The notes beneath the pieces were generated by a model. The model saw only the letters and a list, made by a program, of their open reading frames with translations, was not told the origin of the DNA and made no database searches. Of a stretch of DNA of 64,000 nt, positions 2 to 38,860 are shown piece after piece (the stretch's first letter is position 1; every line of letters starts with the position of its first letter). The DNA comes from Paraspadella gotoi (Eukaryota > Animalia > Chaetognatha), in assembly GCA_051294375.1 (NCBI GenBank), contig CM119268.1, positions 1,881,486-1,945,485 of the forward strand. Direction: 5' to 3'. Made by a program: the position numbers and the translations under genes.

Positions 2-1342
2 GGGCGTGGAGTTTATTTCATGGTCAAGATCGATGTTGACGATTGTTACCAAACGATCGATCAAAAGAAACTCTGCCGAATAATCGACGGGATCGGCGAA
101 TATCATTCGGAGATGATAATGGCCGACCAGCGTTTCGATTACGTCACGTTGACGGGGAATCGACCCAAAGTCAATCGAGCCTCGGTTACCATTTTGAAAA
201 AAGCCTCCGAAGAGTCGCCGTCGTTCGGCGAATTGGCCAATCTGGCTCATGAGCGCGACCGGTTTTACGCCGCGATCATAGAAGACCGTTGTTTCTCGGG
301 ATGCAAAGCGGAAACGTCTCAGATTTGTCGAGTTTTGAAGGATCACATTACCAACACATTGATCAAAGTAGAATCCGACTACTACTTGATGAGCAGAGGT
401 CTCGCCGCCGGCTGCGTGGTGTCCTCGTTGTGCTGCAATCTGTACTACGGAGATTTGGAGAACACTTCTCCCCCGGCCGGCGACGCGGAAAACTGTCTCG
501 TCGTTCGCGAAATCGACGACTATCTCCTAATTGCCGATCGAATGGAGACGGCCCAACGTTTCCTGACGTCGTTTTCCCGCGGATTCCCAGAATATTCGAT
601 GTACGTGAAAAGAAGTAAAACTTTAACTAACTTTCCCTTTGCCTCTCGTTGTTACGAAGCTCCCGCGCTGGACTCTTCTTGCGCGCGAGTATATCCCGCG
701 GTGGCTCGATCGAGAGATTGTCGTTCGACGGCCGATTCGTGGTTTCCCTGGTGCGGATTCCTCTTCGACGACCGCACCCTCGAGGTTCGCTTTGATTTCG
801 CTCGCTACGACTGGCGACGACCGCGGTTTATGCGACAAAGTATCTCCGTCTCTTACGGTCACCGTTGGTCCACGAAGATCCTCGTCGACGCCGTCAAGTC
901 GAACGTCAAGAACTTGGGTTGGCCGCTTTGCTTCGCTCCGCCGGTCAATTCCCGCCGCGTTCGCCTCCGCAATTTCCTAGAGTTTTTGGTTTTAGTTCTC
1001 CGAAAGCTCTACACCCTTGATCGCGAGTTACGCCCTTTTTCCGCGCGACTCCATTGCGACCCCGAGACATTCGTCGACATCGTGGTAACGATCTCCCGGG
1101 TTGCTCGCTCGCGGATAGAGGCCGCAACGCGTCATGCGTTGCGTAAGCTCGGAAAAAGCGCGAGTCGCGTGATTCGAAGGGACGCGGCGATCTGGCTCGG
1201 TTACGAGGCCGCAGCCATCGCTTTCCATCCCAATCGGGGCCAATTTGGTCGATGTCTAAAGGCAGTTCGTCACCGGCAGAGAATGTACGCGGCTTCGATG
1301 AGAAAAGATTTCCAGTTCATTCGCTCGCTTTCAGTTTTATGA
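2..1342 (+). CDS. TERT: Telomerase reverse transcriptase, 3' part (RT motifs A-E plus C-terminal extension); 5' end lies upstream of the window
   Basis: The frame is open from base 2. It contains motif A (YFMVKIDVDDCYQTI), a long IFD-like spacer, B' (RGLAAGCVVSSLCCNLYYGDLE), C (VVREIDDYLLI), D (RGFPEYSMYVKRSKTLTNF) and E (FPWCGFLFD), followed by a TERT-like helical CTE. AATAAA at about 1384. Confidence 0.9.
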   Translation, partial: GRGVYFMVKIDVDDCYQTIDQKKLCRIIDGIGEYHSEMIMADQRFDYVTLTGNRPKVNRASVTILKKASEESPSFGELANLAHERDRFYAAIIEDRCFSGCKAETSQICRVLKDHITNTLIKVESDYYLMSRGLAAGCVVSSLCCNLYYGDLENTSPPAGDAENCLVVREIDDYLLIADRMETAQRFLTSFSRGFPEYSMYVKRSKTLTNFPFASRCYEAPALDSSCARVYPAVARSRDCRSTADSWFPWCGFLFDDRTLEVRFDFARYDWRRPRFMRQSISVSYGHRWSTKILVDAVKSNVKNLGWPLCFAPPVNSRRVRLRNFLEFLVLVLRKLYTLDRELRPFSARLHCDPETFVDIVVTISRVARSRIEAATRHALRKLGKSASRVIRRDAAIWLGYEAAAIAFHPNRGQFGRCLKAVRHRQRMYAASMRKDFQFIRSLSVL

Positions 1343-1840
1343 TTCCTTTGAACTGTGATTAAACCTTTGCAAATAGACAAACAATAAACGAATATTATAC
1401 ATCAGTAAATAATGAGTCTCGAGATAATCTTCTTCACAGAATTGTCTCCATCGCACTTACCGGTGACTTTACTAAAAATTCTTCAGTAATCAGTAACCTA
1501 TGTCTATGATCTTGTTTTATGGTATTTTTGCTATTTCATCACCTTAGTTCTAGTATTTCAACATTTCTGGAATAAATTTCAGCATGATTTTTTCGCGATG
1601 CTTGCCCCGTTGATCAATATTTCAAAACGTTTGGTTAAATTCGAACTTGTTATGCTTCACCTTTTGTTGCAGCCGCCCATCGCTCGAAGTAAGTCGGGGT
1701 GTTTCAAACTTTAAACCAACATCAGCTTCCGCCCTTGAACAAATTATTAACGAACAAACTTTAGAAGAAGACTTTTAATAATTTAATTCGACTCGGTCTT
1801 CTACCCCGATTCTTCTGTTCTCGTTATAGAATTGGAAACC

Positions 1841-4800
1841 ATGTCGGAAACCTTCGCTTACCCGCCCGTCCGTCGCGACGATACCGTCGTCGAGACTCTC
1901 CACGATCGAGTCGTTCCCGACCCTTACCGCTGGCTGGAGGATCCCGACTCGAGCGAGACCAAAGCTTTCGTCGACGCCCAGAACGATCTGACACGGCCCT
2001 ACCTCACCCAAAGCTCCATCCGGGATAAATATAAAAAGAGATTGACCGAGTTGTGGGACTATCCCAAGTACGGGTGTCCCCGACGCCGCGGGAGTCATTA
2101 CTTTTACTCGCACAACTCGGGCCTGCAGAACCAGAGCGTGATGTACGTGCAGGAGAGTCTGGATGCCGAGGCCCGCGTCTTCCTCGACCCCAACAAACTC
2201 TCCGACGACGGAACAGTCGCCCTCTCCGGCACCTCCTTCTCCGACGACGGGACTCTCTTCGCTTACGGACTCAGTCAGAGCGGATCCGACTGGATCAAGA
2301 TCAACTTCAAAAACGTGGCGACGGGAGAAGATTTGGAAGACGAGCTGCAACACGTCAAGTTTTCCTGCATGTCCTGGACTCACGACAACAAAGGGCTTTT
2401 TTACAACAGGTTACAAATTCGACATAACCATTTCTATAGCCCTTTGTTAAACTTCATAAAAATCTTCTTCTTTAACTTAATTCCCAAATTGTTGTAGAGA
2501 GCTTATCATACAATAATACATATATTTGTTCAGTTTCTAGAATGAGTTTATTTTAATTATAGCCGTGTTACAGTTGAACACGATTTTTTAGGGGAAAAAA
2601 ATTTAAAATCTTTTTTTTTTTTTCAAATTGTCTAAAATATTTGAATTGCTTTAAATTAAACGGTTTTTTTTCGCTTTCTCTCCAACCCAAGGTACCCGGA
2701 AAGCGCGGATGGGCGCGAGACGACCCGTAACGTCCACCAAAAGCTTTATTACCACTACTTGGGAACGTCGCAGGATGACGACGTGCTCGTTTTGGAATTC
2801 CCCGAGCACCCCAAGTGGATGGCGCACGCGGAAGTCAGCGATTGCGGCAATTACGTCATCATCACCATCCACGAAGGCTGCGACCCGGTCAACAAGCTTT
2901 ATTACGCCGGTGAATTTGAGAGAAATGAGAGAGAGACGGAAACAAAGAAATTTATAGAATAAAACGCATTTTTTGCCTTTTTTCAGACCTTCGCCTTTTG
3001 GGCGCGGAGGGAATCCGACGCAAGTTGGACTACAAGATCGTGGTCGATAACTTCGACGCCGAGTACGAGTACATCACCAACGAGGGCGCCATCTTCACCT
3101 TCAAAACGAACCTCGAGGCGCCCCGTTACAAACTCGTCAACGTGGACTTGGGACGGGGAGACGAAGCCGCCGCTGGGATGCTCGATCTCATCCCGGAAAA
3201 CCCCACCGACGTCCTCACCTGGGCGCTCTGCGTTTCGGGCAACAAGCTCGTCCTCAACTATCTGCAAGACGTCAAGGCCGCCTTGTTTTTACACGGACTC
3301 GAGACGGGTATGGATTAGTTAATAATAAACTATTTAAAGTTTACTAAATTTTTAACAATATTAACAACAAGAATAAAGAAGCGGTAAATTATGAATACTT
3401 TTTTTTTTTCAGGCGAAAAAATCCGTGAGTTTCCGCTTGACATCGGAACAATCAACGGCGTCTCTGGCGACAAGAAGTACGACGAGATCTTTTACTCCTT
3501 CGTCTCCTTCCTCACTCCCGGCACCATTTATCACGTGACCGACGTCAATTCGGAAGCTCCTTCCAAAGTTTACCGCCAGACGGACGTCAAGAACTTTGAC
3601 GGGTCCCTCTTCGAGACTCGCCAGGTCTTCTTCCCTTCCAAAGACGGCGTCAAGGTTCCCATGTTCGTCATTTGTCGGAAGGGACTCGCTTTGGACGGGT
3701 CACATCCTGTGTTTTTGTACGGTGAGTGAATGCGGACGCCCGGGGGGGGGCGTAAGAGTTGTGAGGAAATGTTTTGTTTGTTTTTGGAGTAAATTGATAC
3801 ATTCTGTTGAGTGACCAAAGAAAGCCGTCCACATTTCCAGGTTACGGCGGTTTCAGCATCTCAATCACTCCGTCCTTCAGCGTGTCGCGCGCCGTCTTCT
3901 TGCAACACTTCGGTGGTGTCTACGCCGTGGCGAATCTCCGTGGCGGCGGCGAGTACGGAGAGACTTGGCACAAGGACGGGATGATCTTGAAAAAGCAAAA
4001 CGTTTTCGACGATTTCCAATCCGCCGCCGAATACCTCATCGCCGAAAAGTACACGTCGAACGCCAAGTGAGTTTTGGACAAAGGTGTTGGAATTCTCGAT
4101 TCAAATAGAATTCAAAATTGAGCCATTATGGCAACAGACGGGTTGCCTGTGATGCCCTTTGGGATTGGGCCTCTCACTGTTGGCTTTGTGGGCTTCCGAC
4201 CCTCAGTGACGCCTCCTTTCACTGGCGCGGTTACCCTAGGACGGTCTCGCTTTGCCAACGCAGAGGGAAGTCGTGAGGACTGTGGATGGAACGCAACGCC
4301 TGGGATGGTGTGTTCCCCCTCTGAGCCAATGGGATTGACTGAACGATGAGGCGGTGTGGATATAACGCCACACCATATTATATTTTTTTTCCTTAAGAGG
4401 TCAAGAACAGTTGATAATGCTAAAGTGGCCGGGCATGAGAAGGTAAAATTAGGTCGACTTACCATTCGATATTACTTTTTTAAAGAATCATCATTAACGG
4501 GGCCTCCAACGGGGGCTTACTCGTTGCCGCTTGCTGCAATCAGCGGCCCGACCTTTTTAAATGCGCCATCGCCCAAGTTGGCGTCATGGACTTGCTGCGT
4601 TTTCACAAATTCACCATCGGACATGCCTGGACCACCGATTTTGGTGATCCCGACAAGAAAGAGCATTTCGAAAATCTGTTCAAGCTTTCCCCGCTGCATA
4701 ACGTTCCTTCTCTTAACGGTAGGAGCGCGAAGATATGAGTTAATCAAATTACTGATTATGATGATTCAACTTAGTCAAAATAAAATATATATACAAAAAC

Positions 4801-5152
4801 TACAAAAACTATTTTCTCTTCACCCCAGGATCCCAATTCCCGGCGCTGCTGCTGCTGACGGCGGATCACGACGATCGCGTTGTCCCGCTTCATTCCTTCA
4901 AACTCATCGCCGAATTGCAAAACAAGATCGGAACTCAATCCTCCCAGGTTTGTATTACTACTTTTAAATTTATTTTTGTCGGTCACCGTCATCCCTTTTT
5001 CATTATCCCCCGATCAGAAAAATCCTATCATGATCTGGATCGACACGAAGGCGGGTCACGGGGGCGGAAAACCCACGGGGAAGATCATCGAAGAATTGAC
5101 GGACGTGGCGTCTTTCATGCATCGATCTGTCGGCCTCACTTGGACCGATTGA
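1841..5152 (+). CDS. PREP: Prolyl endopeptidase (S9A), 8 coding exons
   Basis: [21 protein letters not shown]-terminus, [15 protein letters not shown], nucleophile motif GASNGG (about 4499), TADHDDRV and KAGHGGGKP catalytic motifs. GT-AG introns join the ORF pieces in frame. Confidence 0.95.
4127..4372 (-). mobile_element. Solo-LTR-like insertion (246 bp) in a PREP intron
   Basis: On the minus strand it reads TGTGGCG...TTGCCATA, flanked by the direct repeat CCAT (4123-4126 and 4373-4376). Clearly homologous to 26430-26680 in the opposite orientation. Confidence 0.75.
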
Positions 5153-5395
5153 CATAAAGAACTCAAATTCTTCCAGTCCAAAAACGATTTCTATTTTTAG
5201 AAATAAAATATTTAAGTTTATTTTACTTTTGCCGTTTAAAGTTATTTTAGTTTTTGTCAGTGATCTTCGCACTGATGTTTCTAATCGTAGTCGTAGTTTG
5301 TCTGCCAAATCAATTTTTACCTTTCTTCATTTACAAATAACAGAATCTCAAACGGATGAAAAGAAGGAAAGCAAAACAAAATTGAAAACAAAAAA

Positions 5396-7524
5396 ATGAT
5401 AACTAATCGTTTTTGTCGATTCTTTCCGTCGCTTTTCCTTCGATCTCTTCGTCCATCGACGTCGATTCTCGTCGAAAATGATTTCCCTTCGACTCGGCTC
5501 GTATCTTCTTCCCAAGCGGCGAGTCATTTCCCACTCAAAAATCGGTGGACTTACGAGGAGGAAAGGCGCGACTTTTTCCTTCCTCGCCCGACGCATTACA
5601 ACTTTACCCACGATCAAATCGAAGCCCGCGCGGCGGACAACGACGATCGACACCGCCTTGCATCTTGGTTCGGGCAGACGATCGAGGGAACGAAATTCGC
5701 TGGTCCTTCGATGATCTGGCCCGCTTGACGAGGAAGACGGCCGCCGTGCTCGAGCAGATCTCTCTGCAACGGGGAGATCGCCTCTTGGTGGTCTTGCCTA
5801 AATTGCCTGGTTGGTGGTTGCTCTGTTTGGCTTCCATCAGTGTGTGGTCGACGATTCTAGTTTATTCACGACACTATATATGAATTAAAATTTCTCCTCC
5901 CTCTTCGACTGTGCCATATTTTTAGATGTGGCATAATTGTGATACCCGGTACGCCTCAAATGACGGCCAACGACTGCAATACCGCATGGAACGCAGCAAG
6001 GCGGCAGGAATCGTTGTGGCCGCGCCATTGATGGCAGCAGTCGATGAAGTCGTTTCCAAATGCCCCTCGGTCAGAATCAAAGCGTTGGTGAGGGAAGAAG
6101 GTGAGGATAAGTTAGAGACGACGACGTCTTGGTTCCATCTTTACGAAGCCATCGACGCCGCCGACGATGATTATCCATTCTTGCCCACATTGGCCGATGA
6201 CCACATGATGATATTCTTCACGAGCGGGACCACAGGTATGGCTTTTCTATCGTTAAGGAAAGAGACGAAAAAAAAAGAAGTCATTTTTAAAATGGATTCG
6301 TGGCAAAAAAAAAAAAGGTTTTCCAAAAATGGCGGTTCACACCCACGCTTCCTTCGGTTTGGCGAACCTGATCACCGGCAAGTATTGGATGGATTTGGAT
6401 CCAACCGACGTTCACTTTAATTTCTCCGACCTTGGCTGGGCCAAGGCCGCCTGGTCCAACCTTTTTGCTCCCTGGATTCTTGGATCTTGCGTCTTTGTTT
6501 ATCATCCTAACGAAGTGGGTAAACCTCATTTTCATCCTCCGTCGGTGCTGCGCGCGCTCAAGGATTTTCCCATTACGACATTTTGCATCGCGCCGTCGGC
6601 GTTCAGGTTAATGTTATTAATGATAAGGTTGTTGGATGGACGAGGTTTAAATCGAGTCCTTATTTCTCTTGACAACAAGAAATTACGCATTTTTAAAGCC
6701 TTCTTGTCCAAGAGGATCTGTCACAATTCCTACCGTTTTCCGCTCTGCGACATTGTATCACTGCTGGCGAAGCCTTGCGGCCCGAGGTAGCCCGTTCTTG
6801 GATGGACGCGACGGGCGTAACTATTCGCGAGGGATACGGACAAAGCGAGCTGGTGCTTCTTCTGGCCAACTTTCCCGTCATCCAAAACAAAGTTGGGTCC
6901 ATGGGCAAGCCGGCTCCTGGCATGGACGTCCGGGTTATTGACGATTTCGGCCGCGATTGCCCGCCGGGGGTAGAGGGCGTAATCGCCCTCAAAGTCTCTC
7001 CTCATCCCCCGATGGGAATATTCGCGGGCTACTTGGACGACCCCGAGCGCACCGCCGCCTCCTTAAGAGGGGATTTTTACCTGACGGGGGATCGGGCGCG
7101 AACCGACGATGACGGGTACTTTTGGTTCGTGGGACGCGACGACGATGTCATTAATACGTCCGGTTACCGCGTTGGACCCGTTGAGGTGGAGAGTGTTCTC
7201 GTCGATCATCCCGACGTCGTCGAAGCCGCCGTCATCGGCGTGGCCGACGAGCGGCGTGGCCAGGCGATCAAAGCCTTCGTCGTCCCGACGGAGAAACGGC
7301 GTCGGTCGATGCGAGATTATTCCTCCGAAGAAGCACTCTTTGCGGCCGAGTTGCAGGATCACGTTAAAAAGCTGACGGCGCCTTATAAATATCCCAGGGA
7401 CTTGGAATTCGTGGAGGAATTGCCGAAAACGACGAGCGGAAAAATAAAAAGGACGACGCTTCGGGAGATGGAACGAGAGAAAGCAAAGGCCGGGTCAAAT
7501 ATGCTTGGTGCTAATTTTCGTTAG
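5396..7524 (+). CDS. Medium-chain acyl-CoA synthetase (ACSM-like) with mitochondrial presequence; apparent 1-bp deletions in the 5' part
   Basis: FFTSGTTG|FPKM AMP-binding loop, SDLGWAKAAWS, EGYGQSE, YLTGDRA, SGYRVGPVEVES, KYPRDLEFVEELPKTTSGKI. The N-terminus is rich in Arg, Ser and Phe. Confidence 0.88.
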
Positions 7525-7889
7525 ACCTACTAATTGGGTTCAGTGGCTGAAAAGTTCTTTTATCTTTTCAAAAATTATATTTTTTATACTTTTTTACAGT
7601 TGACGACTCGCCAAATAGTTGATTCATTTTTTACTTTTTCTTTTGCCGATTTTTGGGCTTTATTTTTTATAAGTGCCAGTAGTTTTTCTAATGTCAATTT
7701 TTTACGCATAATGATTTCCCTATTCTGTATCTCTCTGCCCTTTCGATATTTGATATGTTAATTTTTGCTGTCTTTTACTTGATGATATGGAGCTTGCCTT
7801 TAGAACTGTTTAATTTTTTGGTACTAATATTGCACGTTCTATCATTTTCAGGTTATCCTGGTTTCTAATTTCCCTTAAGAGAACCAATC

Positions 7890-8317
7890 ATGCCTCCTAA
7901 AGACTCTAAATCCAAGCAGCCCGCCAAGAAGCCCAAGGATGGGGCCAGCTCCGGTGGCAAGGCCAAGAAGAAGAAGTGGTCGAAGGGCAAGGTCCGCGAC
8001 AAGCTCAACAACCTGATCCTTTTCGACAAAGCCACCTACGAAAAGTTATACAAAGAGGTCCCGTCTTACAAGCTGATCACGCCCTCGGTCGTCTCGGAAC
8101 GTCTCAAGATCCGCGGCTCTCTCGCCCGGTTCGCTCTCAAGGAGTTGCAAGAGAAGGGCCACATCAAGCTCGTTTCGGCCCATCATTCTCAGGTAATTTC
8201 TTCTCTTCTTAGTCAATTTTGCGACGTGACATTTGTTTAGTATTAATAAGCGGCTTATCCTCAAATTCGCAGGTCATATACACGAGAAACACCAGGGCCG
8301 ACGACCAAGAAGAGTGA
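7890..8317 (+). CDS. RPS25: 40S ribosomal protein S25 (eS25), one intron
   Basis: MPPK...[33 protein letters not shown]...HHSQ|VIYTRNT; GT-AG intron at about 8193-8272. Confidence 0.97.
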
Positions 8318-8646
8318 ATGGCGGAGAAGAATCATTCGACAAAAAAGGATGTTTGGGGCTAAATTTGGGGGAAATCTTATTGGGGGAAAATACGAAACCT
8401 TTGTTGTTCATTTTATTTGAAATTTTGAAGAATTAAAACATTCTTGTATTCCAAGTTTAAAATGGCTTCCATTTTTTTAGAAAGCAGTCTTATAAACAAG
8501 CCTTCTCAGTACTATGTTCGCTGCGATGCTCAGAACGGCATTTCCTGAGTAGCTATTATATAGAATTCTCCCTCATCTTCGAACAATAAAACGTCTCATT
8601 TTACAAACAAGTTTTCTCAAAATTTTTTTTTCTCCGAGACGCAAAA

Positions 8647-11600
8647 ATGCCGCCGACTGATAAGAAGAGAGACCATGTGGAGACCATGATTCGTTCCTGC
8701 CTCATCTCTTCCAAAGAGGGCGTGCCGTTGCGAGACTTTGCCAACGATTACGTCATGATGACGGGCCAGGAGATTCCTTTCCGGGAATTGGGCTACCCGA
8801 CTCTCCACGCCTACTTGCTTTCCATACCCCGCGTGGCTCGATTGAGCGGCGGTGGCCACGCCATCACGGTGCATGGCGTTCCCAACGAGGAAACGGCGAC
8901 GATCGCGCGCCTCGTCAGCGATCAACGGTCGAGCAAGAAATCCTCCAGGGGAAAGAGGGGGCGTCCGAGCGGACGCCGACACTTGGGCGGTTCGGGGGCC
9001 GGAGCGCGTCGAACCGGCTTGGCGACTAGAACCCCATCGGGTCGATCAAACTCGAGATCCTCTCCGTCCGCGCTTGTTAGTTCCGTCGTTAGGCCGCTCT
9101 TGGCGTCTCGCGCTCACCCAGGGTGGAACTCGAGTCGTCCTTCCTTCGTCGGGAATCGGCGAATGCCCGAACCGTCGGCCAAACCTCTCGTCGATAATCT
9201 CGCGCCTGACGATCTTCGTCGTCGCTTGGGTTCCGATCTTCGAGTCACTCTCGATCGCTCGTCGCAGGAGCGAATCGTCATTAACGGTCCCGTGCGGAAC
9301 AAAAGCCCCAACGAAGTATCAGACGCCGTTCTCGAGACCCGATGCTTGAAATACTTGGAAAAGTACAAAAACGGAGTGTGGTTCGACAAGTTTCAAAACG
9401 ATTTCGCCAAAAGCTTTGGCTCGGAGGTTATGCCCCGAGACTTGTTGGGAAGACTCCGTCGCTTGACGGACGTCGTCGAAGTCGAAAGATAATCTTTCCA
9501 AAACGATCGTCAAGCTCCGTCGTCATCGATCCTCCGACGCCAGCGCCTCCACCGCCATGTCGAGCGAGTTGAGGCGCGTGGAGTTCGTGTCGCCGAGAGA
9601 GATGATAAACAAGGGTTTCGTTTCTTTCGTCAAGGATCCCCACGAATGGTTCCTCCATCTGGCGGACAATCAACTGAACGGATTCAGTTGGAAGTCAATC
9701 GGGAAGAGAAGAGGACCCCTTGGTCAAGTCGTCGACTGTGTTGCCGGGGGCCGTCGGCGCCGCAGTCTGGAGGACTGAGGATGGCGGACGGTCATTGGTA
9801 TCGGTTCAAGGTCTTGGAGACGGACGACCCAAGGAATCCCAGGAAGGTCCGGCTCTTTTTTCTCGATTTCGGAAACATTTCAGTCAAGGTCAATAAATAC
9901 AATATTTACTAAATTCTAAATATTTGTATCTAGTGAGACTTAACTTTTAAATTCCTACTCAGACTGTCGATGAACTCTACGTCTTGCCGGAAAAATTATT
10001 CTTGGTTCCCGCGCAAGCGGTGCACTGCAAAATTACCAATGTCCCAAAGCCGGTCGGGGGCTGGACGCTCAAGCACGTCGACGCCTTCAAGGGTGCCTTG
10101 GAGAAGAAAGCCGGATTGTTTGACCACGTCTTCGTCGAAGTGAGTCCGTCGATCGAGGAGAAGTTTTTTTTTCAAACTAACATCTGACACATAATTATTG
10201 AGACAAAAGATTGAATGTGTTAAAGTTTTATAACATTTTATTGTAAATATAAATACAAAATATAATTTTTTAATACTAATAACGTTAACTAAATACAGAC
10301 GAACAAGTTGAACCAAAAAAAGTCACAATTTTCTAGTGAAATGTGGCGTTGGGACCTTCAATCGAGACGCCAGCTTTCTCGAAGAAAACCCAACTTTATT
10401 TTCCATTCCTTTCACTGTCTTGCCGTGAGTTTTCTTGGCCGCCCTGCACCTTTTTTGTGCTTGATAGTATCTCCAGACTTTACTCATTGTATTACTCGAT
10501 AAATAGATGGACTCCTGACATTTAGCTTCAAAAAATACTGTAAAGTAAATGCTGCTCCTTCTTGTTCATGATTTTGGTAGAATTGGGCAATGACTTGACG
10601 GCGCGCTTCAGAGGAAATTGACTGCATCTTGAAAACGCGCGGGCCGATAAAAAAAAAAATTCAGTTTGGGAGACAAACATTCGAGGCTTCATTTAAAAAA
10701 AAAAAGCTTTCTACGGCGTCCTGGACGCCGTCTACAGGCCCCGGAAGCCGTCTCAATAATTTTGTGTCAGATGTTATTTTCCCGCGAATCCAAAGTTTTA
10801 ATTTGGTTGACATTATATGACAGCTGAAAGACTCGTCGGGAACGAGTCCCTACGGCGGGCCCCTTTGCGATGTCGACGTCTTCTATCCCCTCGACGATTT
10901 CCGGTTTTCTTCCGAAAGCCTCTCCTCGATTTTCAATCTCAAAATCAAGGGAATCAGGTATTTGAAAATGTTTTTTTTTTTTATAATTTTTTTTTATTTA
11001 CAGACATTGACAGTGACAGTGAAATTTAGTGGAAATTAGTCGGGTTAGGTAAATTAACTTGCATATCATTATTACTTTTTTGTATAACCTTCAGGAGTAG
11101 TGCTCGCTCTGCCTTTCTGCTTTACTTATTGTTTGTTATAATAACTAATAAAATAAAATAAAAAAATTAAAAGAAAGCAATGGGCCTATAATTAATTTAC
11201 TACTATATACAAATGAGATTGATGCATTCGATCTCATTTAGTAATTTTCTACACAATTTTCGTCAGTGCTTCATCATCGATGCTTTCTTCGCTCCATTCG
11301 CCGCTACCCTCGCCTCTTCCTTCGCCGCAGCCTTCGTCTCTTTTGCCCTTCGAATCCATCGCTCTTCCTCTGCTTTTGCCAAGTCTCGACCTTTGGGACG
11401 AAGTCTTTGTCAGCGACGTCCAGACTCCCACAGATACGACTATTCGAATCAAAGGACCCAAGTACAGCGACAAACTCACGGCCGTCGAAAATAAGCTCAA
11501 TTCCATATACTCTCAAGGTTGTTTGGGTTTATTGCCTTTTATCCTTATCAAGTTTTATTTAGCGTTCGTTCTTTCGTTCGTTCGTTCGTTCCTTCATTCA

Positions 11601-15847: not shown

Positions 15848-15997
15848 CTTTTGTTTGTTTATCTTTTTTAATCGTTGCTGTTAGATTAATGGTTATTTTT
15901 TCCAAATTTGATTGTTCGCCTTTTAAAATACTATAATACATCTACATCTTTTCATTACTTTTTTTCGATTTTATATTTTCTAAGACGAGTAAAAAAA

Positions 15998-17218: not shown

Positions 17219-17482
17219 GATCGCGAACCTAAGTCCTAACCATACTGCAAGATTCTTTGAAAGTTTGAAAATACTTGTTAATTTAGCAAGTAACGTCGCG
17301 TCGTTCGGTTTTGACGACGTCAAAAAAAATATTTTTTCTGCTTTTAACTTTGCTCTTTGGTGATACTAATTCTACTTTATTTATTTTATACTCGTCCTCT
17401 GACAATTTTTGTATATCAGATCTGTGATATATGGGATATCTTTTACGGTTTACAACAGCCTTATTCTTTTCCAGTCACGGCG

Positions 17483-18883: not shown

Positions 18884-20036
<1,153 letters not shown>

Positions 20037-26429: not shown

Positions 26430-26680
26430 TGTGGCGGTATATTCACAGTGCCTCACATCCACCATCGTTCAGCCAATCCCATTGGCTCAGAGGGGGAACG
26501 CACCATCCCAAGCGTTGCATTCCATTGACAGTCCTAACGACTTCCCTCTGCGTTGGCAATGCGAGACCGTCTTAGAGTAACCTCGCCAGTGACAGGAGGC
26601 GTCACTGAGGGTCAGAATCCCCCAAAGCCAACAGATGCCTCATCCCAATGGGCATCACAGTCAACCCGGCTGTTGCCATA
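26430..26680 (+). mobile_element. Solo-LTR-like insertion (251 bp), second copy
   Basis: TGTGGCGG...TTGCCATA flanked by the direct repeat ACAT (26426-26429 and 26681-26684); homologous to 4127-4372. Confidence 0.75.
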
Positions 26681-27252
26681 ACATATTGATTTACAATTCT
26701 GTATTTTTGTTTATTACTGTTTATTTATTATTTTTTTGGATGCTTGTATTTTCTTCAACTTATTGACCCTGAATTGCAAGCTTTTTTATAAAATATTTTT
26801 TTTATTATTTTCTATGGCACTTGCATGCCAATGTTGCTTGTCGTTATGCCTATGTTTTTGTTTCATGGATTGTGTCCGAAAATGACAACATAAATAAGAA
26901 CAATGTTCTCGTAACTATGGAAATTGTAAAAAGAAATTAGTACGAGATATTTATACACTTTAAAGACTAAAAAAAAATTGAGAAAAAAAATTTATGTAAT
27001 TTATTTACCCTCTAACAGATATTGTGTAATTTGTGTAAAGATGTATTGCGTAATTTTGAATTCTTACTTTCTGAATATTTTTAACCCAAGTTTGGTTTTT
27101 GTTTGGGAGAAAAGGCTTTTATTTTTATCGTTAGTAGCCATATAGTACAAGAAACATTTTTAACTGTTAGTTGTATTGTTTTTAAACGTTTTTATACTAT
27201 TATAGTTATTGTTATATTTGGATACGAGATGTACACATGTAGTCGTAGCGAA

Positions 27253-27299: not shown

Positions 27300-27301
27300 A
27301 T
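27253..27301. repeat. (TAAA)n microsatellite
   Basis: Visible tandem taaa run. Confidence 0.9.
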
Positions 27302-27390: not shown

Positions 27391-28080
27391 ATGTACTTAA
27401 TCCTCATTGCGTCGATAATTCTATCGACATGCTCTCTCGACTCTCACTCTTTTCAACTCGACCTCATCGAAGATTTAGTCTCCCCGATTTCGTCGGAATG
27501 TTCGAGAAACGATTCCGAGGACTCCAGCCTGATCGACGACGACCTCCGCCATCTCGAGTCCAGCGTCGCCTCCGTCCAAATCCCCTTGGATCTTTTCAAA
27601 GGCGTCGACGCTTCCGTCTTTCTTCCTTTAGAAAAATTAGAGATCTTGGTGCAACAGGGCAGACAGACTTTGGGTCAAGATGACTCTTTCTCTAGCCTCT
27701 CGTCCAAGTTCAGTGGTTCAGCACCAGAGGTCTCGCGTCCACCATCCTTTTGCGCCGAATTGAGAGACGGCGAAGAAGCTGGAGACGGCGAAGAAGCTGG
27801 CGACGGCGAAGAAGCTGGCGACGGCGAAGAAGCTGGCGACGGCGAAGAAGCTGGCGACGGCGAAGAAGCTGGCGACGGCGAAGACGGAGGCGACGGCGAA
27901 GACGGCGGCGGAGAAGGCGACGGCGACGGTGACTATGAATCCGGAAAAACACGGAGACCCTACGGTGGCGAAGACCCGGATGAAAGTTCAAAGGGAGGAT
28001 GTTGCCCCTCCGGCTGTACTCTATCCGCTCGGTCGTCCGTAGGTGATGGTTCTAACTCTGGGCCGACACGTCGTCGATGA
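27391..28080 (+). CDS. Orphan acidic protein with signal-peptide-like N-terminus and (GDGEEA)n repeat
   Basis: ATG in GCCATG context; hydrophobic MYLILIASIILSTCS; GC-rich, coding-like composition in an AT-rich neighbourhood; no recognisable family. Confidence 0.5.
   Translation: MYLILIASIILSTCSLDSHSFQLDLIEDLVSPISSECSRNDSEDSSLIDDDLRHLESSVASVQIPLDLFKGVDASVFLPLEKLEILVQQGRQTLGQDDSFSSLSSKFSGSAPEVSRPPSFCAELRDGEEAGDGEEAGDGEEAGDGEEAGDGEEAGDGEEAGDGEDGGDGEDGGGEGDGDGDYESGKTRRPYGGEDPDESSKGGCCPSGCTLSARSSVGDGSNSGPTRRR
27766..27930 (+). repeat. 18-bp coding minisatellite (GACGGCGAAGAAGCTGGC)n
   Basis: About six near-perfect units followed by degenerate units. Confidence 0.9.
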
Positions 28081-28490: not shown

Positions 28491-28936
28491 CATAGAAAAT
28501 GTCAAAATTTTAAAATGAGTTTTTCTTATTTTTGAAAGCAGATTCGAATTCCTCAAGAAAAGTTGATAAAAGGAGATTTAACTAAGTTATTAACATTTTA
28601 GAAAATTATTTCATTAAGTGGGTCAAAATCCTGAAAAAACTATTATAATTAACTTATAATTAAATTTGACTATAAAAAATATAGTTTTTTTAATTTTTTG
28701 CTAACGTAATGAAATAATTTTTGATTAAGACTTAGAACAAAGTTTTGAAGAGAGATTTAACAACGATTTTTATTTCATAGTGAAACGGACATGTTTCGAC
28801 TCACATACGAGTCTTCTTCAGCGCCAATTCAATTCAATTAAGACTTATATTTTCTTTTATTAACTTTTTATGAGGAATTCGAATCTTCTTTCAAAACTAA
28901 GAAAAAACTTTTTTTACAATTTTGACATTTTCTATG
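28491..28936. mobile_element. Non-autonomous element with about 90-bp imperfect terminal inverted repeats, enclosing a hammerhead ribozyme (Penelope-like pLTR remnant or MITE)
   Basis: The left arm CATAGAAAATGTCAAAATT..GATTCGAATTCCTCA..AAAAGTT is the reverse complement of the right arm AACTTTT..TGAGGAATTCGAATC..AATTTTGACATTTTCTATG. No clear TSD. Confidence 0.65.
28784..28825 (-). ncRNA. Minimal type I hammerhead ribozyme (Penelope/retrozyme type)
   Basis: Minus strand: GGCG-CUGAAGA-A-GACUC-GUAUGU-GAGUC-GAAA-CAU-GUC-CGUU. It has an intact catalytic core, a 5-bp stem II, a palindromic ACAUGU stem III, a GUC cleavage triplet and a 4-bp stem I (GGCG/CGUU). Confidence 0.8.
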
Positions 28937-29180: not shown

Positions 29181-32100
29181 ATGCCGTTTCTCTCGGCTCT
29201 CCTTCCGCGCGCTCTCTCCCCCGCGCGTTGTCACGTGACCGTCGACTTGGTCCGCTCGATCTTGACACGGTCCGCGCCCGACGGCGCCCTCTATTCCACC
29301 CGCTCTTCCCTCGTCCGCCTCCGCCCTTCTCACTTCCTTCGCCGTCACTCAATCCCTCTCATCGCTTTCCGCCTCCGTTCCACGATGGTGGCGTCGCAGC
29401 CGGAAGACGCCGGCGCCGTCGCCAGCGTCTGTTCCGACGTCGTCAAGCCGGAAAACGACGCCCGCCTTTTCCGCGCCCTTCAACTGGCGAATGGCATGAA
29501 GGTGCTGCTGATCAGTGACCCGGAGACTGACAAGTCGTCGGCGGCGCTCGACGTCCACGTCGGCCACCTTTGCGACCCTTGGGAATTGCCCGGCCTGGCT
29601 CACTTCTGCGAACACATGCTTTTTCTCGGGACGGAGAAATATCCCGAAGAAAACGAATACAACAAGTTTTTACAGGTTATTTCATTGGAGGGCAAATAAC
29701 CAAAGAGTCTATAATTGAAGATCAATATCCGTCCACGTGAATCCGATTTCCATTCGCGAGATTCTGCTTCCAACAATTTTCTCTCCGTTTAAAGTCATTT
29801 AAGTCATTAATTAAAATAGATGTTATTTCCTCGCAGGAACACGGAGGATCCTCGAACGCCTTCACCTCCGCGGAGCACACCAACTACTACTTCGACGTCT
29901 CCCCCGACGCCCTCGAACCCGCCCTCGATCGCTTCGCCCAGTTCTTCCTCACGCCTCTCTTCACCCCCAGCGCCACCACGAGGGAAGTTAACGCCGTCAA
30001 TTCGGAAAACGAGAAGAACCTGCAAAACGACGCCTGGCGACTGTTTCAATTGGAAAAGTCTACGGGCAAAGAGGGTCACGACTGGACCAAGTTCGGTACG
30101 GGCAACAAGCAGACCCTGGAGACGGACCCGGAATCCCGCGGCATCCAGGTCCACAAGGCCTTGCTCGAGTTTCACGCTCGCCACTACTCGGCCAACATCA
30201 TGGGCGTGGCCGTTTTGGGTAAAGAGTCACTGGACCAACTCCAGGAAATGATCGTCCGTCTCTTCGCCGGCGTCGAAAATAAAAACGTGGAGATCAAAGA
30301 GTGGACGGAACATCCTTACGGCGAAGACCAGGTCCGCGTCAAGGGCCTCATCGTGCCCGTCAAGGACATTCGCAACCTCAACATCACCTTCCCCATTCCC
30401 GACCTGCAACAGCACTGGAGATCCAGTCCGGGTCATTATCTGGGTCACCTCATCGGGCACGAGGGGCCGGGCTCGCTCTTGTCCGAGTTGAAGCGGAGGG
30501 GATGGGTCAACAACCTCATGGGAGGAGGGAAAGGTGAGGGAAACGTGGTTCGTACAAAATAGAAAGACTACCTGGACCACAATGTAAAAAAATAACAAAA
30601 ATTGTCCCTTTTGAAATTGGACAAGATAGATAGATAAGAAATATCAAAAACGGTATTTTTTTTATTAGTGATGGGGAAAGTCGAAATGGAATTTTGACTA
30701 ACGAAATATTTTGATTCGGGAAATACATAGCTTTTTCACAAGCGAAATTATGTATCTTTTGACGACCGGATTACATGTTAAGACTTCGTATGTTTTAAAT
30801 GTTAATGTTATAAATTCGCTTTACTTTCACCTTTTCCCAGGTGGCGCCAAGGGTTTCATGTTTTTCATAGTCAACGTGGATTTGACCGAAGAGGGAATCA
30901 ATCACGTGGACGACATCGTCACCCTTGTTTTCCAATACCTCAACATGCTGCGCCAGGCAGGCCCGCAGGAATGGGTCTTCGAGGAGTGCAAAAAGCTGGG
31001 CGAGTCTTTAAACGGAACCCTGTGCGGTTTTCTTTGTGAAAACGAGAGTTATCTTCTCCTTCGTTTACTGTATCGTTTTTTTCTCTCTCTCTCCCTCTTC
31101 CAGGCGAAATGAATTTTCGGTTCAAGGACAAAGAGAAGCCCCGGTCTCTGACGTCTTCCGTGGCGGGGTCCCTCTTCGACTATCCCTTCGAACACGTCAT
31201 ATCCGGCGGTTATCTCCTCCACGAGTTCCGCCCCGACCTCGTCGACGACATCATGTCCCGCCTGACGCCTGACAACGTTCGCCTGGCCGTCATCGCGCGC
31301 CGGTTCGATTCGGTCGCCGATTCGGTCGAGCCCTGGTATGGGACGCAGTTCACAGCGGCCAAGATCTCCGACGAGGCGTTGGACACTTGGCGCGGGGCGT
31401 CGACCGACGAGAGTCTCCGGTTACCGGATCAGAACGAGTTCATCCCGACCGAATTCGGGCTCGTCGCTGCCGAGGAGAACGAGGAGACGCTGCCCCGCGT
31501 CGTTTACAACAGCCCTTACGGCCGAATGTGGTACAAGCGGGACGACAAATTCCTTCTGCCCAAGGCCGCGCTCCACTTTGAGCTGCGGAGTCCGATGGCC
31601 TACGTCGATCCTCTCGCCGTCAACCTCAACTTCCTCTTCGTCAGTCTGTTCCAGGACGCGCTCAACGAGTGGACCTACGCCGCGGAGATCGCCGGCCTCG
31701 GCTACAGTCTCGAAAATTCCATTTACGGATTGTATTTGGGGATTAGCGGTGAGATTGACATTCACCTTGAAACATTCAGTAAATCCGTACTCTTCTTTAT
31801 GAAAAAAATTTTTTCTCGCCTTTTTCCAAGGCTACAACGACAAGCAGAACATCCTTTTGGACAAGCTCGTCCACAAGATGGTCAACTTCGACGTGGACCC
31901 GAAACGATACGAAATCCTCAAGGAAAAATACAAGCGCGCCTTGGAGAACTTCAAGGCGGACCAGCCGCATCAACACGCCATCTACTTTACCTCCGTCGTG
32001 ATGGCCGAGAAGATGTGGACCAAGGAGGAGTTGCTTAGCTCTCTCGAGTCGGAAGTCACCATCGATAAATTGCGAGCCTTCATTCCGCAGTTGCTCTCTC

Positions 32101-33522
32101 GAGTTTGGGTCGAGGGAATGTCGTACGGAAACATTTCTAGTCAAGGTAAGAAAGATTAAAGCTTCGTAGGAGAGTAATTTGTGAATCATTCCGATTTTCA
32201 TCGAGTCATTCTTTTTAAATTTCATATTGTCTGTGTTATATGTCTGCTATAACTTGAATTAAACCTCACCCCCATTTCATCATCAGACGCCATCAATCAG
32301 ATGAAAACGCTTACCGAGGTTCTCAAGTGCCAAGCGTCGACCAAGCCTCTACTTCCCGAACAGCGAGGCAAATTCCGGGAAGTGCAATTGCCCGACGCCT
32401 CATCCTTCGTCTACGAACGCGTCAACGAGGTTCACCCGACCTCGAGCCTCGAGATCTACTTGCAATGCGACCTGCAAGATACGCGCGCCAACGCCCTGCT
32501 CGAGCTCTTTTGTCAGATCATCAACGAACCCTGCTTCGACGTCCTGCGCACAAAGGAGCAGCTGGGTTATATCGTATTCAGCGGGGTGCGAAGATCCAAC
32601 GGCGTGCAGGGTAAGTTGTTTTCGAACAAGAAACCAGTTAACTAAATCTAGAAACTAATTTGAAAAAAAAAAAAAATTGTCGCCTCTCAGGACTCCGCGT
32701 GATCGTTCAGAGTGACCGATCTCCGGAATATGTCGACCAACGCGTGGAGGCGTTTTTGGCAAAGGCTGGCAGGGAGTTGGAGGACGGGACAGTGACGCAG
32801 GAACAGTTCGACAATCACGTCAAGGCGCTGGCAACGAGGAGGTTGGAGAAACCGAAGAAACTCTCCTCTCAAGCTTCGAAATGGTAATGACGACGGCTGC
32901 GTCGCTCTATTTTAATCCTGATGTTATCTTACTTTTTAAAATGATTTCTTAATAATTAATAATTTCTTAAAATGATTTGTTAATACCCGAGGTGGAGCGA
33001 GATCGTTTGTCAGCAGTACAACTTTGATCGCGACGTCGTGGAGACGGACTCTTTACGCACGTTGACGATGAACGACGTCCTCTGTTTCTACAAAACCTTC
33101 ATCGCCGTCGACGCTCCTCATCGCAAGAAGATGGCGACGCACGTCGTCAGCGCCAAGGGGCCCAAACCGGACAAAAAGGAGGAGAACGAGGAATCGGTGG
33201 GCACTGGGCAGGATTTGGGCAGGATTGCAATTAATAATGATAAATTAATAATTATCCTTTGAAAAATTTTCATAATGGGAAATACGGTGCTTGAAACAAA
33301 AAAAAATTGCCCGATTGTATCTCGACATATATTTTCCATGTTAACATGATAAATATATATTTTCGTTTTTCCATCCAGCCGTCGGATTTGTGCCCGGTGC
33401 CCAAGATGACGACAACGCCGACTCAAATATCGGATCCCGTGAAATTTAAATCGAACCTCGCTCTCTTTCCTCTCGTCAAGCCGTTCATCACACTTCCGCC
33501 CATTTGCGCGTGCGATGAGTGA
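29181..33522 (+). CDS. IDE: Insulin-degrading enzyme (M16A metallopeptidase), about 9 exons
   Basis: [31 protein letters not shown] (HxxEH), [27 protein letters not shown]. First ATG at 29181, second in-frame ATG at 29385. Confidence 0.96.
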
Positions 33523-34296: not shown

Positions 34297-37222
34297 ATGT
34301 CGTCTTCGTCCGCCTCGTCGTACAACTTTAAAAAATTGGCGGTCGTGCCGAGCGCCAAAGATTTTATCGATATCGTCTTGTCCAAGACTCAAAGAAAGAC
34401 GCCTACCGTCATTCACCCTTCATACGCCATCAGCAGAATTCGTTCTTTCTACATGCGGAAAGTAAGTTTCTACCTCCCCCCCACACTAAAAAGACCTGGT
34501 TAACGCCCTACTCCTTCCTCTCTCTCCCTATCCCAATCTGCTCCTCAATCTTTTTCATCAATTTTACACGTTTTATTTGTTTTCAGGTGAAGTTCACACA
34601 GCAAAACTATCACGACAAACTTACCCGAATCATCACGGAGTTCCCAAAGCTGGAGGACGTCCATCCTTTCTACGCCGACCTGATGAACGTGCTGTACGAT
34701 CGAGACCATTACAAGCTGGCCCTCGGACAGATCAACACCGTCCGACACATGGTCGACAACATCGCCAAGGACTACGTGCGCTTGCTCAAGTACGGCGACT
34801 CTTTGTATAGATGCAAGCAGTTGAAGAAGGCGGCTTTGGGTAGGATGTGCACCATGATGAAGAAGCAGGGGCCCAACCTGGCGTATCTTGAGCAGGTGAG
34901 TCACGGGAAAGGCATCGTTATTGTGACGTTAAAAGAAAAGAAAAAGAAAGGTGAATATTTCATTTTTTTTTTTTTTTTTCGTTTCCGCCACCAGGTTCGT
35001 CAGCATCTGTCTCGACTACCCTCTATCGATCCTAACACGAGGACCATCCTCATCACCGGATTTCCCAACGTCGGTAAATCTTCCTTCATCAACAAAATCA
35101 CGCGGGCCGACGTGGAGGTCCAACCTTACGCCTTCACGACCAAGAGTCTCTTTGTCGGCCACACAGACTACAGATACTTGAGATGGCAGGTAGGGAAACT
35201 ATGGCAGGTAGGGAAACAATGGCAGGTAGGGAAACGATGGCAGGTAGGAAAACGAAATTAACATAAAGAAATTGAGAGAATTGTATATTTTAAAAACGGT
35301 TTGCAGGTGGTCGACACTCCGGGGATATTAGATCATCCTCTGGAGGAACGGAACACGATTGAGATGCAGGCCATCACAGCTCTGGCCCATCTCCGCGCTA
35401 TCGTCCTCTACATCATGGACGTTTCGGAGCAGGTTCGTCTAAAGACTAAATTAAATTTAGTCGTTAATTAAAGATTTAATTAAATTTGACACGAAAGAAA
35501 ACATTTTAACTCGACAATCAGTGCGGCAACTCGGTGGAGGCGCAGTTCGCTCTCTTCAACAACATCAAACCGCTCTTCAGCAACAAACCCCTCGTCGTCG
35601 TCGTCAACAAGATCGACGTCAAGAAAGTGGAGGAATTGTCGGAGGAGCGAAAGGCTCTTTTCGACGAGTTGGCCAAGGCAATTGAGTTCTGTTCTTATCT
35701 TATCTTATCTCATCTTATCTCTTCAATTCATTTCACCACTCCCATTTTCAGGAGGGCATCCCCGTAATGTCCATGTCCACAGTGACGGAGGAGGGCGTGG
35801 CGGAAGTGAAGACGACGGCCTGCGATCGACTTCTCGCCCACAGGATCGAGACTAAAGTTAGAACGAAGAAGGTCAACGATGTCATGAACAGACTCACGGT
35901 CAGTTATTTTTCAAAAAAAAAAAAAAACTATAACAAACTGCTTCGATTTAGAGACGCACGAACTCTAAATTCTCTCTAAATCAGGTGGCGATGCCCAAGG
36001 CTCGCGACGACCTCTCCCGGGAGCCGTTCATTCCGGAATTGGCGCGAAAGAAACTCGAAGCCAAACGCCGTCTCATCGTCAAAAAGGAGGAGGAGGAGAA
36101 AGGGAGGAAGATGGAGGACGAGGAAGAGGAAGAAGGAATGGAGGTCGAGAGGAAGAAGACGGAGAGGGACATAGAGTTAGAGATGGGCGACGACTACACT
36201 TTGGATCTGAGAAAAGTCTGGGACCTCAAGGTTAGAAACAGAAATAGTTATGTCGTCCCGCTTTGATGACTCCATCTCTATCTTTCAAATCAATTTATAC
36301 CTAGAACCCCGAAGAAAAGTACGACGCGATTCCCGAGCTGTGGATGGGACACAACGTGGCTGACTTTGTGGATCCCGAGATTTTCAAGAAACTGGAAGAG
36401 TTGGAGAAGGAAGAGGCGATCAAAGAGGAGGCCGGGTTTTACAACAACGATTCCGGTAAGAAATTAGTTATCTCCTCGAATATTGTACGTAGAACTTTAT
36501 TTAAATTCAAAATTACACAAATTTCTCTTCCTTTTTTTCTCCCATTTTTTCCAAAAATGAAGAATCCGAGGACGAAGACTCTCGCGAGATTCGCCTCCTG
36601 GCGGCGCAGATCCGCGACAAGAAGAAGCTCATGCTTCAAGTCAACTCGGAGAAGCGTTCCGTCCGTAAGCCCCGCCTCCCGCGTGGCGCCCGACCCCGCT
36701 CCCAGTCCGAATTCCTGGGCGAGATGCGCGGGATGGGCATTGAGGTGGACGACGAGGCCGGGTCTCACTTCAAGAAACGCGCCAAGAGTCGGGGCCGCTC
36801 CCTCGTGCGCAAAGGACTCAAACGGAAGGCGGGCGAGGCGATGGAGGTTGACGGGGTGGCGTCGTCGTTGACGAGATCGAAATCCGCGCATCGATCCGCG
36901 TCGCATTTGTCGAGGACGAGGGATCAGTCGGGATTGAGGGACTCGTCGCAAGTGAGTCGCGCGGGAGGCAAATTTAGAAAATCCCAACAAAAGCGATTTA
37001 TGACGTTTTTTGTATGTATCATGTATATTTACTTTCGTTCATTTAACATCGTTTATTTTCTCTTTAAACCAGGTTTCCAAGGTCCGTCACATGATGAAAA
37101 AGTCGCAGGCGCCGCGAAACCGATTGGCGAAAAAGGGCGAGGCCGACCGCGCCATCCCGGCCAAGCGGCCCAAGCATCTCTTCGCCGGAAAGCGCGGGAA
37201 GGGATCCTCCAACAAGCGTTAA
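34297..37222 (+). CDS. GTPBP4: Nucleolar GTP-binding protein 1 (NOG1), about 10 exons
   Basis: [38 protein letters not shown]|[14 protein letters not shown]-terminal [12 protein letters not shown]. Confidence 0.96.
35183..35254 (+). repeat. 4 x 18-bp tandem repeat spanning a NOG1 exon/intron boundary
   Basis: ATGGCAGGTAGGGAAACN repeated four times; each unit contains CAG|GTAGG. Confidence 0.92.
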
Positions 37223-37530: not shown

Positions 37531-38051
37531 ATGGCGAAGCATCACCCGGACTTGATCTTTTGTCGAAAACAACCCGGCGTCGCCATCGGCAGACTCTGCG
37601 AAAAGTGCGACGGAAAATGCGTCATTTGTGACTCGTGAGTTTTTCCCGATGAACCTGAAAGGGGATGAGAGTTATTTGTAATTGTTTTAATGATGAGTAT
37701 GAGTTAATTTTTGGTTATTGTTCAATCGTTTCCCGTTTCCGTTTCCAGCTACGTTCGTCCCTGCACTTTGGTTCGAATTTGCGACGAATGTAATTACGGA
37801 TCTTATCAGGGTCGGTGCGTCATCGACGGCGGACCCGGAGTCTCCGACGCTTACTACTGCAAGGCGAGTTCGATTTGCTCTTAAACTGACTTTTAAAGTT
37901 ATTCTAATAATTATTATTTAATCTTTCTTCGTCGCAGGAATGCACCATCCAGGAGAAGGATCGAGACGGATGTCCCAAGATCGTCAATCTTGGCAGCGCG
38001 AAGACTGATTTGTTTTACGAGCGAAAAAAATACGGATTCAAGAAGAGATGA
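37531..38051 (+). CDS. PHF5A: SF3b component PHF5A (Rds3), 3 exons
   Basis: Spliced translation [35 protein letters not shown]|[38 protein letters not shown]|[37 protein letters not shown]. Not in the ORF track. Confidence 0.97.
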
Positions 38052-38164
38052 TGTCTCGAGTTGTTTTGTTCCAACAAATTCTTCTCTCATCCTTTATTTT
38101 TTCACTTTTCATTGCCCTGACTCGTACAATTCTTATGTAGGATCCCCTTGATTATAATTACAAC

Positions 38165-38860
38165 ATGTCCGATGACTTTTGTGAACGATTTGATCGGGAA
38201 GAGAAGAAAGACTCACAAGAAGAGAAGAAAGACTCGCAAGGAGCGAATGAATCAAACGAAAACAGAGAAGGTGAACAAAATGAGGTGATGAACGAAAGTC
38301 CAGTTGGTCTGGACGAAGAAAAGACAAAAGATCAAGAGAGAGAAAAAACAATCTACCAAGACTCGGGTAGCGCCGAAGTGAACGAGGACAACGTCCAAGT
38401 TGCGCGAGAAAAAGACGAAGATGACGTCGATGACGCCGTCGAAACAAACGACGACGATGAGGTCGACGCCAATGACGCCGACAACCAAGAAGACGCCGAC
38501 GACGAAGAGGACGAACCCGACGCGGAACCGAAAAGCAAAAAGTCTCGGCACGACGCCGAGGCTTCCGCCGATCCTTCAATCCCCGCCAACGACGCCGCCC
38601 CGCCTCTCAAATCCCGTACTCGCCTCCCCGCCGCCCGCGTCAAGGCCATCATCAAACTGGACCCGGAAGTGACGCTGGCCTCCCAGGAGGCGGTGATGAC
38701 GGTGTCCAAAGCGGCCGAGTTATTCGTGGCGTCGTTGGCCAAGCAGGCGGCGGGCGTGACGGCGCTCAACAAGAAGAAGACGATTCAGCGGCGAGATCTC
38801 GACGCCGTCGTCGACGCTGATCCTGCGCTGGCCTTTCTCGAGGGCATGCTGGATTTTTGA
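38165..38860 (+). CDS. POLE4: DNA polymerase epsilon subunit 4 (histone fold) with long acidic N-terminal extension
   Basis: RLPAARVKAIIKLDPEVTLASQEAV..AAELFV..KKTIQRRDLD..AFLEGMLD matches POLE4/Dpb3. Confidence 0.85.
   Translation: MSDDFCERFDREEKKDSQEEKKDSQGANESNENREGEQNEVMNESPVGLDEEKTKDQEREKTIYQDSGSAEVNEDNVQVAREKDEDDVDDAVETNDDDEVDANDADNQEDADDEEDEPDAEPKSKKSRHDAEASADPSIPANDAAPPLKSRTRLPAARVKAIIKLDPEVTLASQEAVMTVSKAAELFVASLAKQAAGVTALNKKKTIQRRDLDAVVDADPALAFLEGMLDF

Follow-up and report, generated by a model that had tools for sequence, protein, structure and literature searches.

A co-oriented run of seventeen unrelated genes as a candidate leader-resolved operon or operons

Why do seventeen unrelated genes, telomerase and a ribosomal protein among them, follow each other on one strand with little DNA in between? 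The question is raised by positions 2 to 38,860 of a 64,000-nucleotide stretch of DNA, the whole of which we call the window and to which all positions refer. The best explanation, to which we give a probability of about 0.6, was one or more leader-resolved operons; these are of a known type and may exceed the nine genes reported in Paraspadella gotoi. The original prediction of trans-spliced operons gained partial support from read-through RNA over the first nine genes and support from an enrichment of splice acceptors ahead of start codons, but no leader common to genes was seen in the RNA contigs.

A script check placed 17 of 17 genes on the plus strand, with stop codons at 17 of 17 and start codons at 16 of 16 expected places; the start codon of TERT lies left of the window. 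Co-orientation and all 16 predicted stop-to-start gaps were reproduced exactly, with a median gap of 318.5 bp and 11 of the 16 no longer than 400 bp. Not one of the 16 neighbor pairs is divergent. Pfam matches were found in 15 of the 17 genes (28 exon pieces scanned), and gene names beyond the Pfam family level are our reading of the domain content. Layout, Pfam and spacer measurements together describe co-oriented, close-packed and unrelated genes, as in an operon. The odds of about 1 in 65,000 previously attached to this orientation were overstated, as they presume independent orientations and ignore the post hoc choice of the window. The arrangement itself is real and beyond chance. The genes and elements, in order along the window, are as follows.

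2 to 1342, plus strand: TERT (telomerase reverse transcriptase), 3' part; RVT_1 at 29.2 bits, E 9e-7, just below the 29.6 cut-off.
1689 to 1829, plus strand: putative cis-intron in the TERT-PREP spacer, donor 1689 and AG at 1828-1829; junction deduced from contig ends and absent from the 15 joints displayed.
1841 to 5152, plus strand: PREP prolyl oligopeptidase, 8 exons; Pfam S9 and S9_N, 7 RNA joints, open model.
5396 to 7524, plus strand: ACSM-like acyl-CoA synthetase; AMP-binding domains, frameshift from small window sequence errors.
7890 to 8317, plus strand: RPS25; Pfam, intron joint in RNA, acceptor 7851 with no strong spacer donor.
8647 to 14470, plus strand: TDRD7-like LOTUS and Tudor protein; Pfam, acceptor 8638 without a strong spacer donor.
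15107 to 15847, plus strand: gene 6, weakly MIS12-like; sub-threshold Mis12 match (E 0.13), 2 RNA joints, acceptor 15079.
15998 to 17218, plus strand: MS4A/CD20-like membrane protein, single exon; Pfam, acceptor 15984.
17483 to 18664, plus strand: TSFM (mitochondrial EF-Ts); Pfam, AGs at 17458 and 17474, non-genomic piece joined at 17457.
18884 to 20036, plus strand: NUDC; Pfam, acceptor 18784 without a strong spacer donor.
20413 to 23919, plus strand: DDX11/Chl1 helicase; Pfam, acceptor 20335 and strong donor 20257 (10.8 bits).
24110 to 25324, plus strand: C2H2 zinc-finger protein (ZNF), single exon; Pfam.
25410 to 26327, plus strand: RDH11-13-like short-chain dehydrogenase; Pfam, strong unpaired acceptor 25387, 63 bases past the ZNF stop.
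26463 to 26700, no strand: short repeat element between RDH and gene 13; PREP intron 5 contains an inverted copy (4107-4348), 91% over 172 nt.
27391 to 28080, plus strand: gene 13, an orphan open reading frame (ORF) that contains an 18-bp tandem repeat; least secure of the gene calls, plus frame best of six in a codon model.
28491 to 28936, no strand: element with terminal inverted repeats, like a miniature inverted-repeat transposable element, in the gene 13-IDE spacer; from repeat analysis.
29181 to 33522, plus strand: IDE insulin-degrading enzyme, 9 exons; Pfam, open 1058-aa model, acceptor 29143.
34297 to 37222, plus strand: NOG1/GTPBP4; Pfam, acceptor 34254.
37531 to 38051, plus strand: PHF5A; Pfam, acceptor 37458.
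38165 to 38860, plus strand: POLE4/CHRAC-like histone-fold protein; Pfam, weak acceptor 38140.

The window's 48 introns, with a median length of 101.5 bp and GC donors in 3 (at 31000, 35678 and 37864), served to build the splice matrices. A start codon was counted if an acceptor of at least 6 bits lay no more than 100 nt ahead of it with no ATG between, and a donor of at least 6 bits in the spacer was taken as strong. Intron-strength acceptors were found ahead of 10 of the 16 start codons, while dinucleotide shuffles gave a mean of 2.8 and none of 1000 reached 10; control ATGs passed the same test in 11 of 71, 8 of 81 and 31 of 240 cases. With summed scores the observed value was 79 and was surpassed by at least one shuffle (maximum 85). 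PREP, ACSM, ZNF, gene 13, IDE and POLE4 did not pass the test as defined. For six of the ten acceptors (RPS25, TDRD7, MS4A-like, TSFM, NUDC and RDH) the spacer has no strong donor, which gives the unpaired 3' splice acceptors ahead of downstream ATGs by which an operon of this kind is recognized. Three of these six genes have weak donor candidates of 3.7-5.5 bits, scores shared by between one tenth and one quarter of real donors. The five acceptors named in the original prediction (7851, 17474, 25387, 34254 and 38140) exist, the last being weak at 4.2 bits. Its statement that acceptors have no obvious donor fails for PREP (1689) and DDX11 (20257), and gene 6, NOG1 and PHF5A are doubtful cases. 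Donor 20257 and acceptor 20335 of DDX11 likely delimit an intron of the 5' untranslated region (UTR). Several acceptors end in AAG and have weak pyrimidine tracts, and one follows a run of A (6236-6317).

RNA evidence was taken from contigs of sequencing run X1 at 85% likeness over positions 1-19900, which reach into NUDC, the ninth gene. This run contains 0.62 of the sampled words, and its RNA type is a guess backed by spliced joints; runs X2 and X3 are from other organisms and gave short conserved matches only. Among the 31 contig joints 15 were displayed, all of them GT..AG. Contig depths served solely for deducing contig extents, and genes were not ranked by depth. Three of the eight spacers in this region are crossed by single, unbroken contig pieces: 8270-9886 from RPS25 into TDRD7 (record 3), 16196-17486 from the MS4A-like gene up to the TSFM start, and 17948-19514 from TSFM into NUDC (record 5). 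The length of record 3 is 4508, versus 4510 for spliced RPS25, spacer and spliced TDRD7. Crossing of the other five was derived by arithmetic on lengths and depth bins. By such arithmetic on printed lengths the gene 6 contig extends to 16226 and the PREP contig to about 5350, and the length of record 5 implies an end at about 20337, or at 20416 if spliced at the DDX11 5' UTR. Calculated depth was about 64-68x across the TDRD7 end and the 636-bp spacer between TDRD7 and gene 6, and about 29x over the ACSM-RPS25 spacer. Record 1 has 1865 letters ahead of base 1, showing that the TERT gene and transcript extend left of the window. Read-through RNA across the spacers of the first nine genes has partial support from the contigs of this one run.

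The interior starts of contigs were compared with the acceptors. Three of the five that could be located (1830, 15078 and 17457) fall on an AG no more than 30 nt from a start codon, a class that makes up 41 of 19900 positions; this test was framed post hoc. We infer splicing at the AGs at 1829, 15079 and 17458. At 15078, ahead of gene 6, depth is equal on either side of donor 14609, which argues against cis-splicing from TDRD7 into gene 6. At 17457, ahead of TSFM, the contig is joined to a 122-letter piece absent from the window, perhaps a leader hub, perhaps a chimera, repeat or allele. The last 30 letters of this piece had no match in the window, even with 3 mismatches allowed, and none in the JGI metagenome contigs. 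The 30-letter loose end may have some likeness to small-subunit rRNA. As to 1830, record 1 fits to 1688, just ahead of the donor, with 30 letters left over, and record 2 begins at 1830. A second, deeper path also enters near the PREP start, from about 1680-1760, and acceptor 1725 is within that range.

Several observations weigh against operons resolved by a leader, and the first group of them concerns the RNA itself. The support comes from a single run of a single study, with an RNA label that is a tool's guess. Contigs join overlapping reads, so that overlapping UTRs look alike and single molecules are not resolvable. The ACSM introns are covered by contigs at 17-19x, which may reflect a low background of DNA or pre-mRNA, and such a background could also span the spacers around ACSM. 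The same intron coverage, together with the guessed run type and a window chosen after the fact, would fit an artefact in which library DNA or graph assembly produced the bridging and co-orientation is chance or a selected extreme. Such an artefact seems very unlikely to us. The PREP introns have no residual depth (182 of 136,186), although graph cleaning could have erased background there; the longest bridged spacer has roughly 64x, more than the 17-19x of the ACSM introns; and the acceptor enrichment derives from DNA alone.

A second group of contrary observations concerns splicing. The contig start at 1830 appears to be explained best by cis-splicing from the TERT 3' region into PREP, across the gene boundary, and contigs run unbroken past the acceptors at 8638, 15984, 17474 and 18784. 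Assemblers clip short tips, and for that reason the unbroken contigs at these four acceptors neither support nor refute a short leader. Both observations also agree with real polycistrons that have no leader, either stable multi-gene RNAs or cis-joined ones (TERT to PREP), with downstream translation by re-initiation or internal entry; the fully spliced records 3 and 5, which hold two ORFs with the spacer intact, agree with this as well. Under that explanation the enriched unpaired acceptors right ahead of ATGs would have no role, upstream ATGs sit in the spacers ahead of the acceptors, and the contigs that favor it cannot reveal single molecules. We consider leaderless polycistrons clearly improbable.

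The spacers themselves gave mixed signals. They had been claimed to be U-rich, a claim that did not survive measurement, as their T-over-A skew does not differ from that of introns (p 0.38). The U-rich element between poly(A) site and acceptor that is a trait of nematode SL2 operons was not found, the T skew of the spacers being no greater than that of introns, a measure that a short element could escape. Stop-to-acceptor distances range over 63-1063 bp, the shortest being 63, 89, 97 and 120 bp. Among the 15 spacers tested, AATAAA or ATTAAA was missing between stop and acceptor in 7 and present in 8. TATA-like boxes were seen in 4 of the 16 spacers. No 6-7-mer shared across the 16 spacers was clearly over the family-wise null, CAGTCA (in 4 of 16) being marginal, and an Rfam scan of the window gave 0 matches.

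The last contrary points bear on the leader and on individual acceptors. A leader common to at least two genes was not seen in the displayed X1 contigs, with 186 loose ends outside the display. By eye the 122-letter piece matched neither the Spadella and Flaccisagitta leaders (PMC2481426, Table 3) nor the acoel leader (PMC9911081), as far as the accessible parts of these papers give them, and its 122 letters exceed the 36-nt chaetognath and 32-nt acoel leaders. Four of the ten strong acceptors, those of gene 6, DDX11, NOG1 and PHF5A, could be paired with a cis donor. A compact tandem array would account for the unseen leader: each gene would have its own short promoter, located either in the spacer or within the 3' UTR of its neighbor, acceptors would belong to 5' UTR introns or be due to chance, and long or overlapping UTRs would merge the contigs. 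Cis donors that fit PREP in addition to the four genes just named, the canonical poly(A) signals in 8 of 15 spacers and the extra depth in bin 1329-1992, which fits a PREP 5' end at about 1680-1760, are on its side. It has to explain, however, six strong acceptors without a strong donor, an RDH acceptor only 63 bp past the preceding stop, spacers of 85-190 bp that must fit 3' UTR, terminator and promoter, the lack of divergent pairs and a non-genomic piece that joins at an AG. We judge separate promoters to be possible, though on the whole unlikely.

Under the favored explanation of leader-resolved operons, polymerase would start left of the window and read through several genes, producing one or few polycistronic pre-mRNAs. 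The upstream message would be cleaved and polyadenylated within the spacer, and the downstream piece would receive a capped leader by spliced-leader trans-splicing at an AG 8-100 nt ahead of the ATG. Leader addition at this AG would also strip upstream ATGs. In the spacers that have no canonical poly(A) signal (7 of the 15 tested) the 3' end is perhaps set near the acceptor. Internal starts or promoters would be likeliest in the long spacers that precede gene 13, IDE and NOG1.

Two gaps exceed 1 kb, RDH-gene 13 and gene 13-IDE. Each contains one short inverted-repeat element, and the net lengths are 825 and 654 bp. The predicted division into 12 genes (TERT to RDH) and 4 genes (IDE to POLE4) is based on these two gaps, which are partly made of mobile-element insertions. 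A single unit of at least 12-17 genes and at least 26-39 kb, including TERT, would be the longest animal operon described. We hold only tentatively, and with more doubt than belief, that there is such a unit, that it belongs to a spiralian, that its leader is unlike published ones and that TERT is cis-spliced into PREP alongside trans-splicing. The AATAAA at 38961 is probably the end of the gene run.

Some further observations were made on individual genes and elements. The repeat at 26463-26700 is very abundant, as the depth bin at its copy in PREP intron 5 exceeded 16,000 in run X1. Another element with terminal inverted repeats is located at 10174-10780, in the 684-bp TDRD7 intron. Small indel errors of the window sequence were found in ACSM and TDRD7. 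Over 7952-8144 a second RPS25 sequence, deeper in X1 and with different flanks, points to a paralogue or to another organism in the run. Gene 6 as a possible MIS12 kinetochore gene would be noteworthy should the animal prove to be a gnathiferan; gnathiferans have been reported to have lost CenH3. Gene 13 had no Pfam or Atlas match. It has a hydrophobic N terminus and an acidic six-residue repeat, lies just past an AATA microsatellite, and may encode a secreted lineage-specific protein or be no gene. In IDE an out-of-frame ATG at 29164 lies 17 nt ahead of the modelled start, and a sequence error may hide the true start. Between 39 and 64 kb no gene was found (63 ORFs listed, 6 scanned). Positions 39000-64000 contain microsatellites, N gaps and error-rich duplications (for example, 51650-54800 again at about 56900-59900) and resemble raw long-read gap fill.

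The ratio of observed to expected CpG in exons was 1.35 over 2-38860 and exceeded 1 in 16 of the 17 genes. Such an excess is unusual for housekeeping genes of animals that have gene-body methylation. The exon ratio of 1.35 suggests that the gene bodies are unmethylated, a trait that other lineages share.

Sequence relatives were used to place the animal. The best named full-length single-domain matches of RDH were deuterostomes at about 53-58%, with two closer relatives at 66-67%; an alignment search for loci related to RDH returned 79 loci, the best at 55% identity, and the 66-67% relatives were not among them. For IDE exon 2 two relatives matched at 81-82%, and no named animal exceeded 72%. 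The best named match of RPS25 was Spadella, and the window exon is 81-82% identical to Spadella RPS25 isoform 1. In a quick IDE tree of 32 rows the window and two relatives fell together within the spiralians, on a long stem, with a support of 82 in the Shimodaira-Hasegawa-like approximate likelihood ratio test (SH-aLRT). A careful tree kept 18 of the 32 rows, dropping the long plant outgroup and 13 others, had no chaetognath or xenacoelomorph IDE, and gave a spiralian placement with support 64/93. To be set against this placement, deuterostome and ecdysozoan positions were not rejected in the approximately unbiased (AU) test (p-AU 0.13 and 0.12). The animal is probably a spiralian, and a chaetognath is plausible. 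The xenacoelomorph Xenoturbella bocki was considered as a further candidate; the accessible text of its genome paper makes no mention of operons and has no trans-splicing passage (PMC11521371), and the IDE tree favors Spiralia.

Leader-resolved operons are known in several animal phyla, and the kind is not new; as proposed here, the run would work in the manner of those of chaetognaths, nematodes and tunicates. We found in the literature no description of this cluster or of an animal operon of more than nine genes, the supplementary operon table of P. gotoi, which may list these genes, being outside our scope. A unit of 12-17 genes, if true, would raise the animal maximum above the nine of P. 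gotoi and the six or seven of Ciona. It would also mean that distance cut-offs overlook long operons in which small mobile elements have lengthened the spacers. One promoter would then serve telomerase, a germline Tudor gene and a ribosomal protein gene, whose levels would have to be set after transcription. Should the animal be no chaetognath, a further lineage would join the scattered animal groups known to have operons.

Operons of C. elegans are not known to exceed eight genes. The SL2-type operons of this nematode and of C. briggsae resemble the window in the short distance from upstream 3' end to acceptor and in combining housekeeping with germline genes (here TDRD7 and TERT). They differ in that C. 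briggsae spacers are shorter (median about 111 bp between gene models), the spacers of the window are not U-richer than its introns, no SL2-like leader was seen in the window contigs, and the best IDE tree is not ecdysozoan, a placement that was nonetheless not rejected. The tunicates Ciona and Oikopleura share with the window gene runs on a single strand, which in tunicates are resolved by a leader, and several spacers of the window are without a canonical poly(A) signal. According to the accessible part of the source, Ciona operons have six or seven genes at most and mostly no intercistronic DNA (PMC7986045), and for Oikopleura the cut-off is 60 bp, whereas stop-to-acceptor distances in the window are 63-1063 bp. 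The acoel Symsagittifera roscoffensis is an invertebrate with widespread leader addition, on 30.2% of genes, but the accessible text of its trans-splicing paper makes no mention of operons, and its 32-nt leader is by eye unlike the loose end (PMC9911081).

Chaetognaths remain for comparison, and for these the accessible parts of two reports were used (P. gotoi, PMC12460157; Spadella cephaloptera, PMC2481426). In P. gotoi 18% of genes, mostly housekeeping ones, belong to operons, the longest of which has nine genes, including ubiquitin and proteasome subunits, and unmethylated gene bodies were reported (PMC12460157). The ubiquitin and proteasome subunit genes of this nine-gene operon are absent from the run of 17 genes, and several spacers of the run are longer than the less than 250 bp between gene models that defines P. 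gotoi operons. Chaetognath operons are nevertheless like the run in having co-oriented, unrelated housekeeping genes that include a ribosomal protein gene, with short spacers between them. The CpG-rich exons of the window match the reported unmethylated gene bodies, and the spiralian placement of IDE fits as well.

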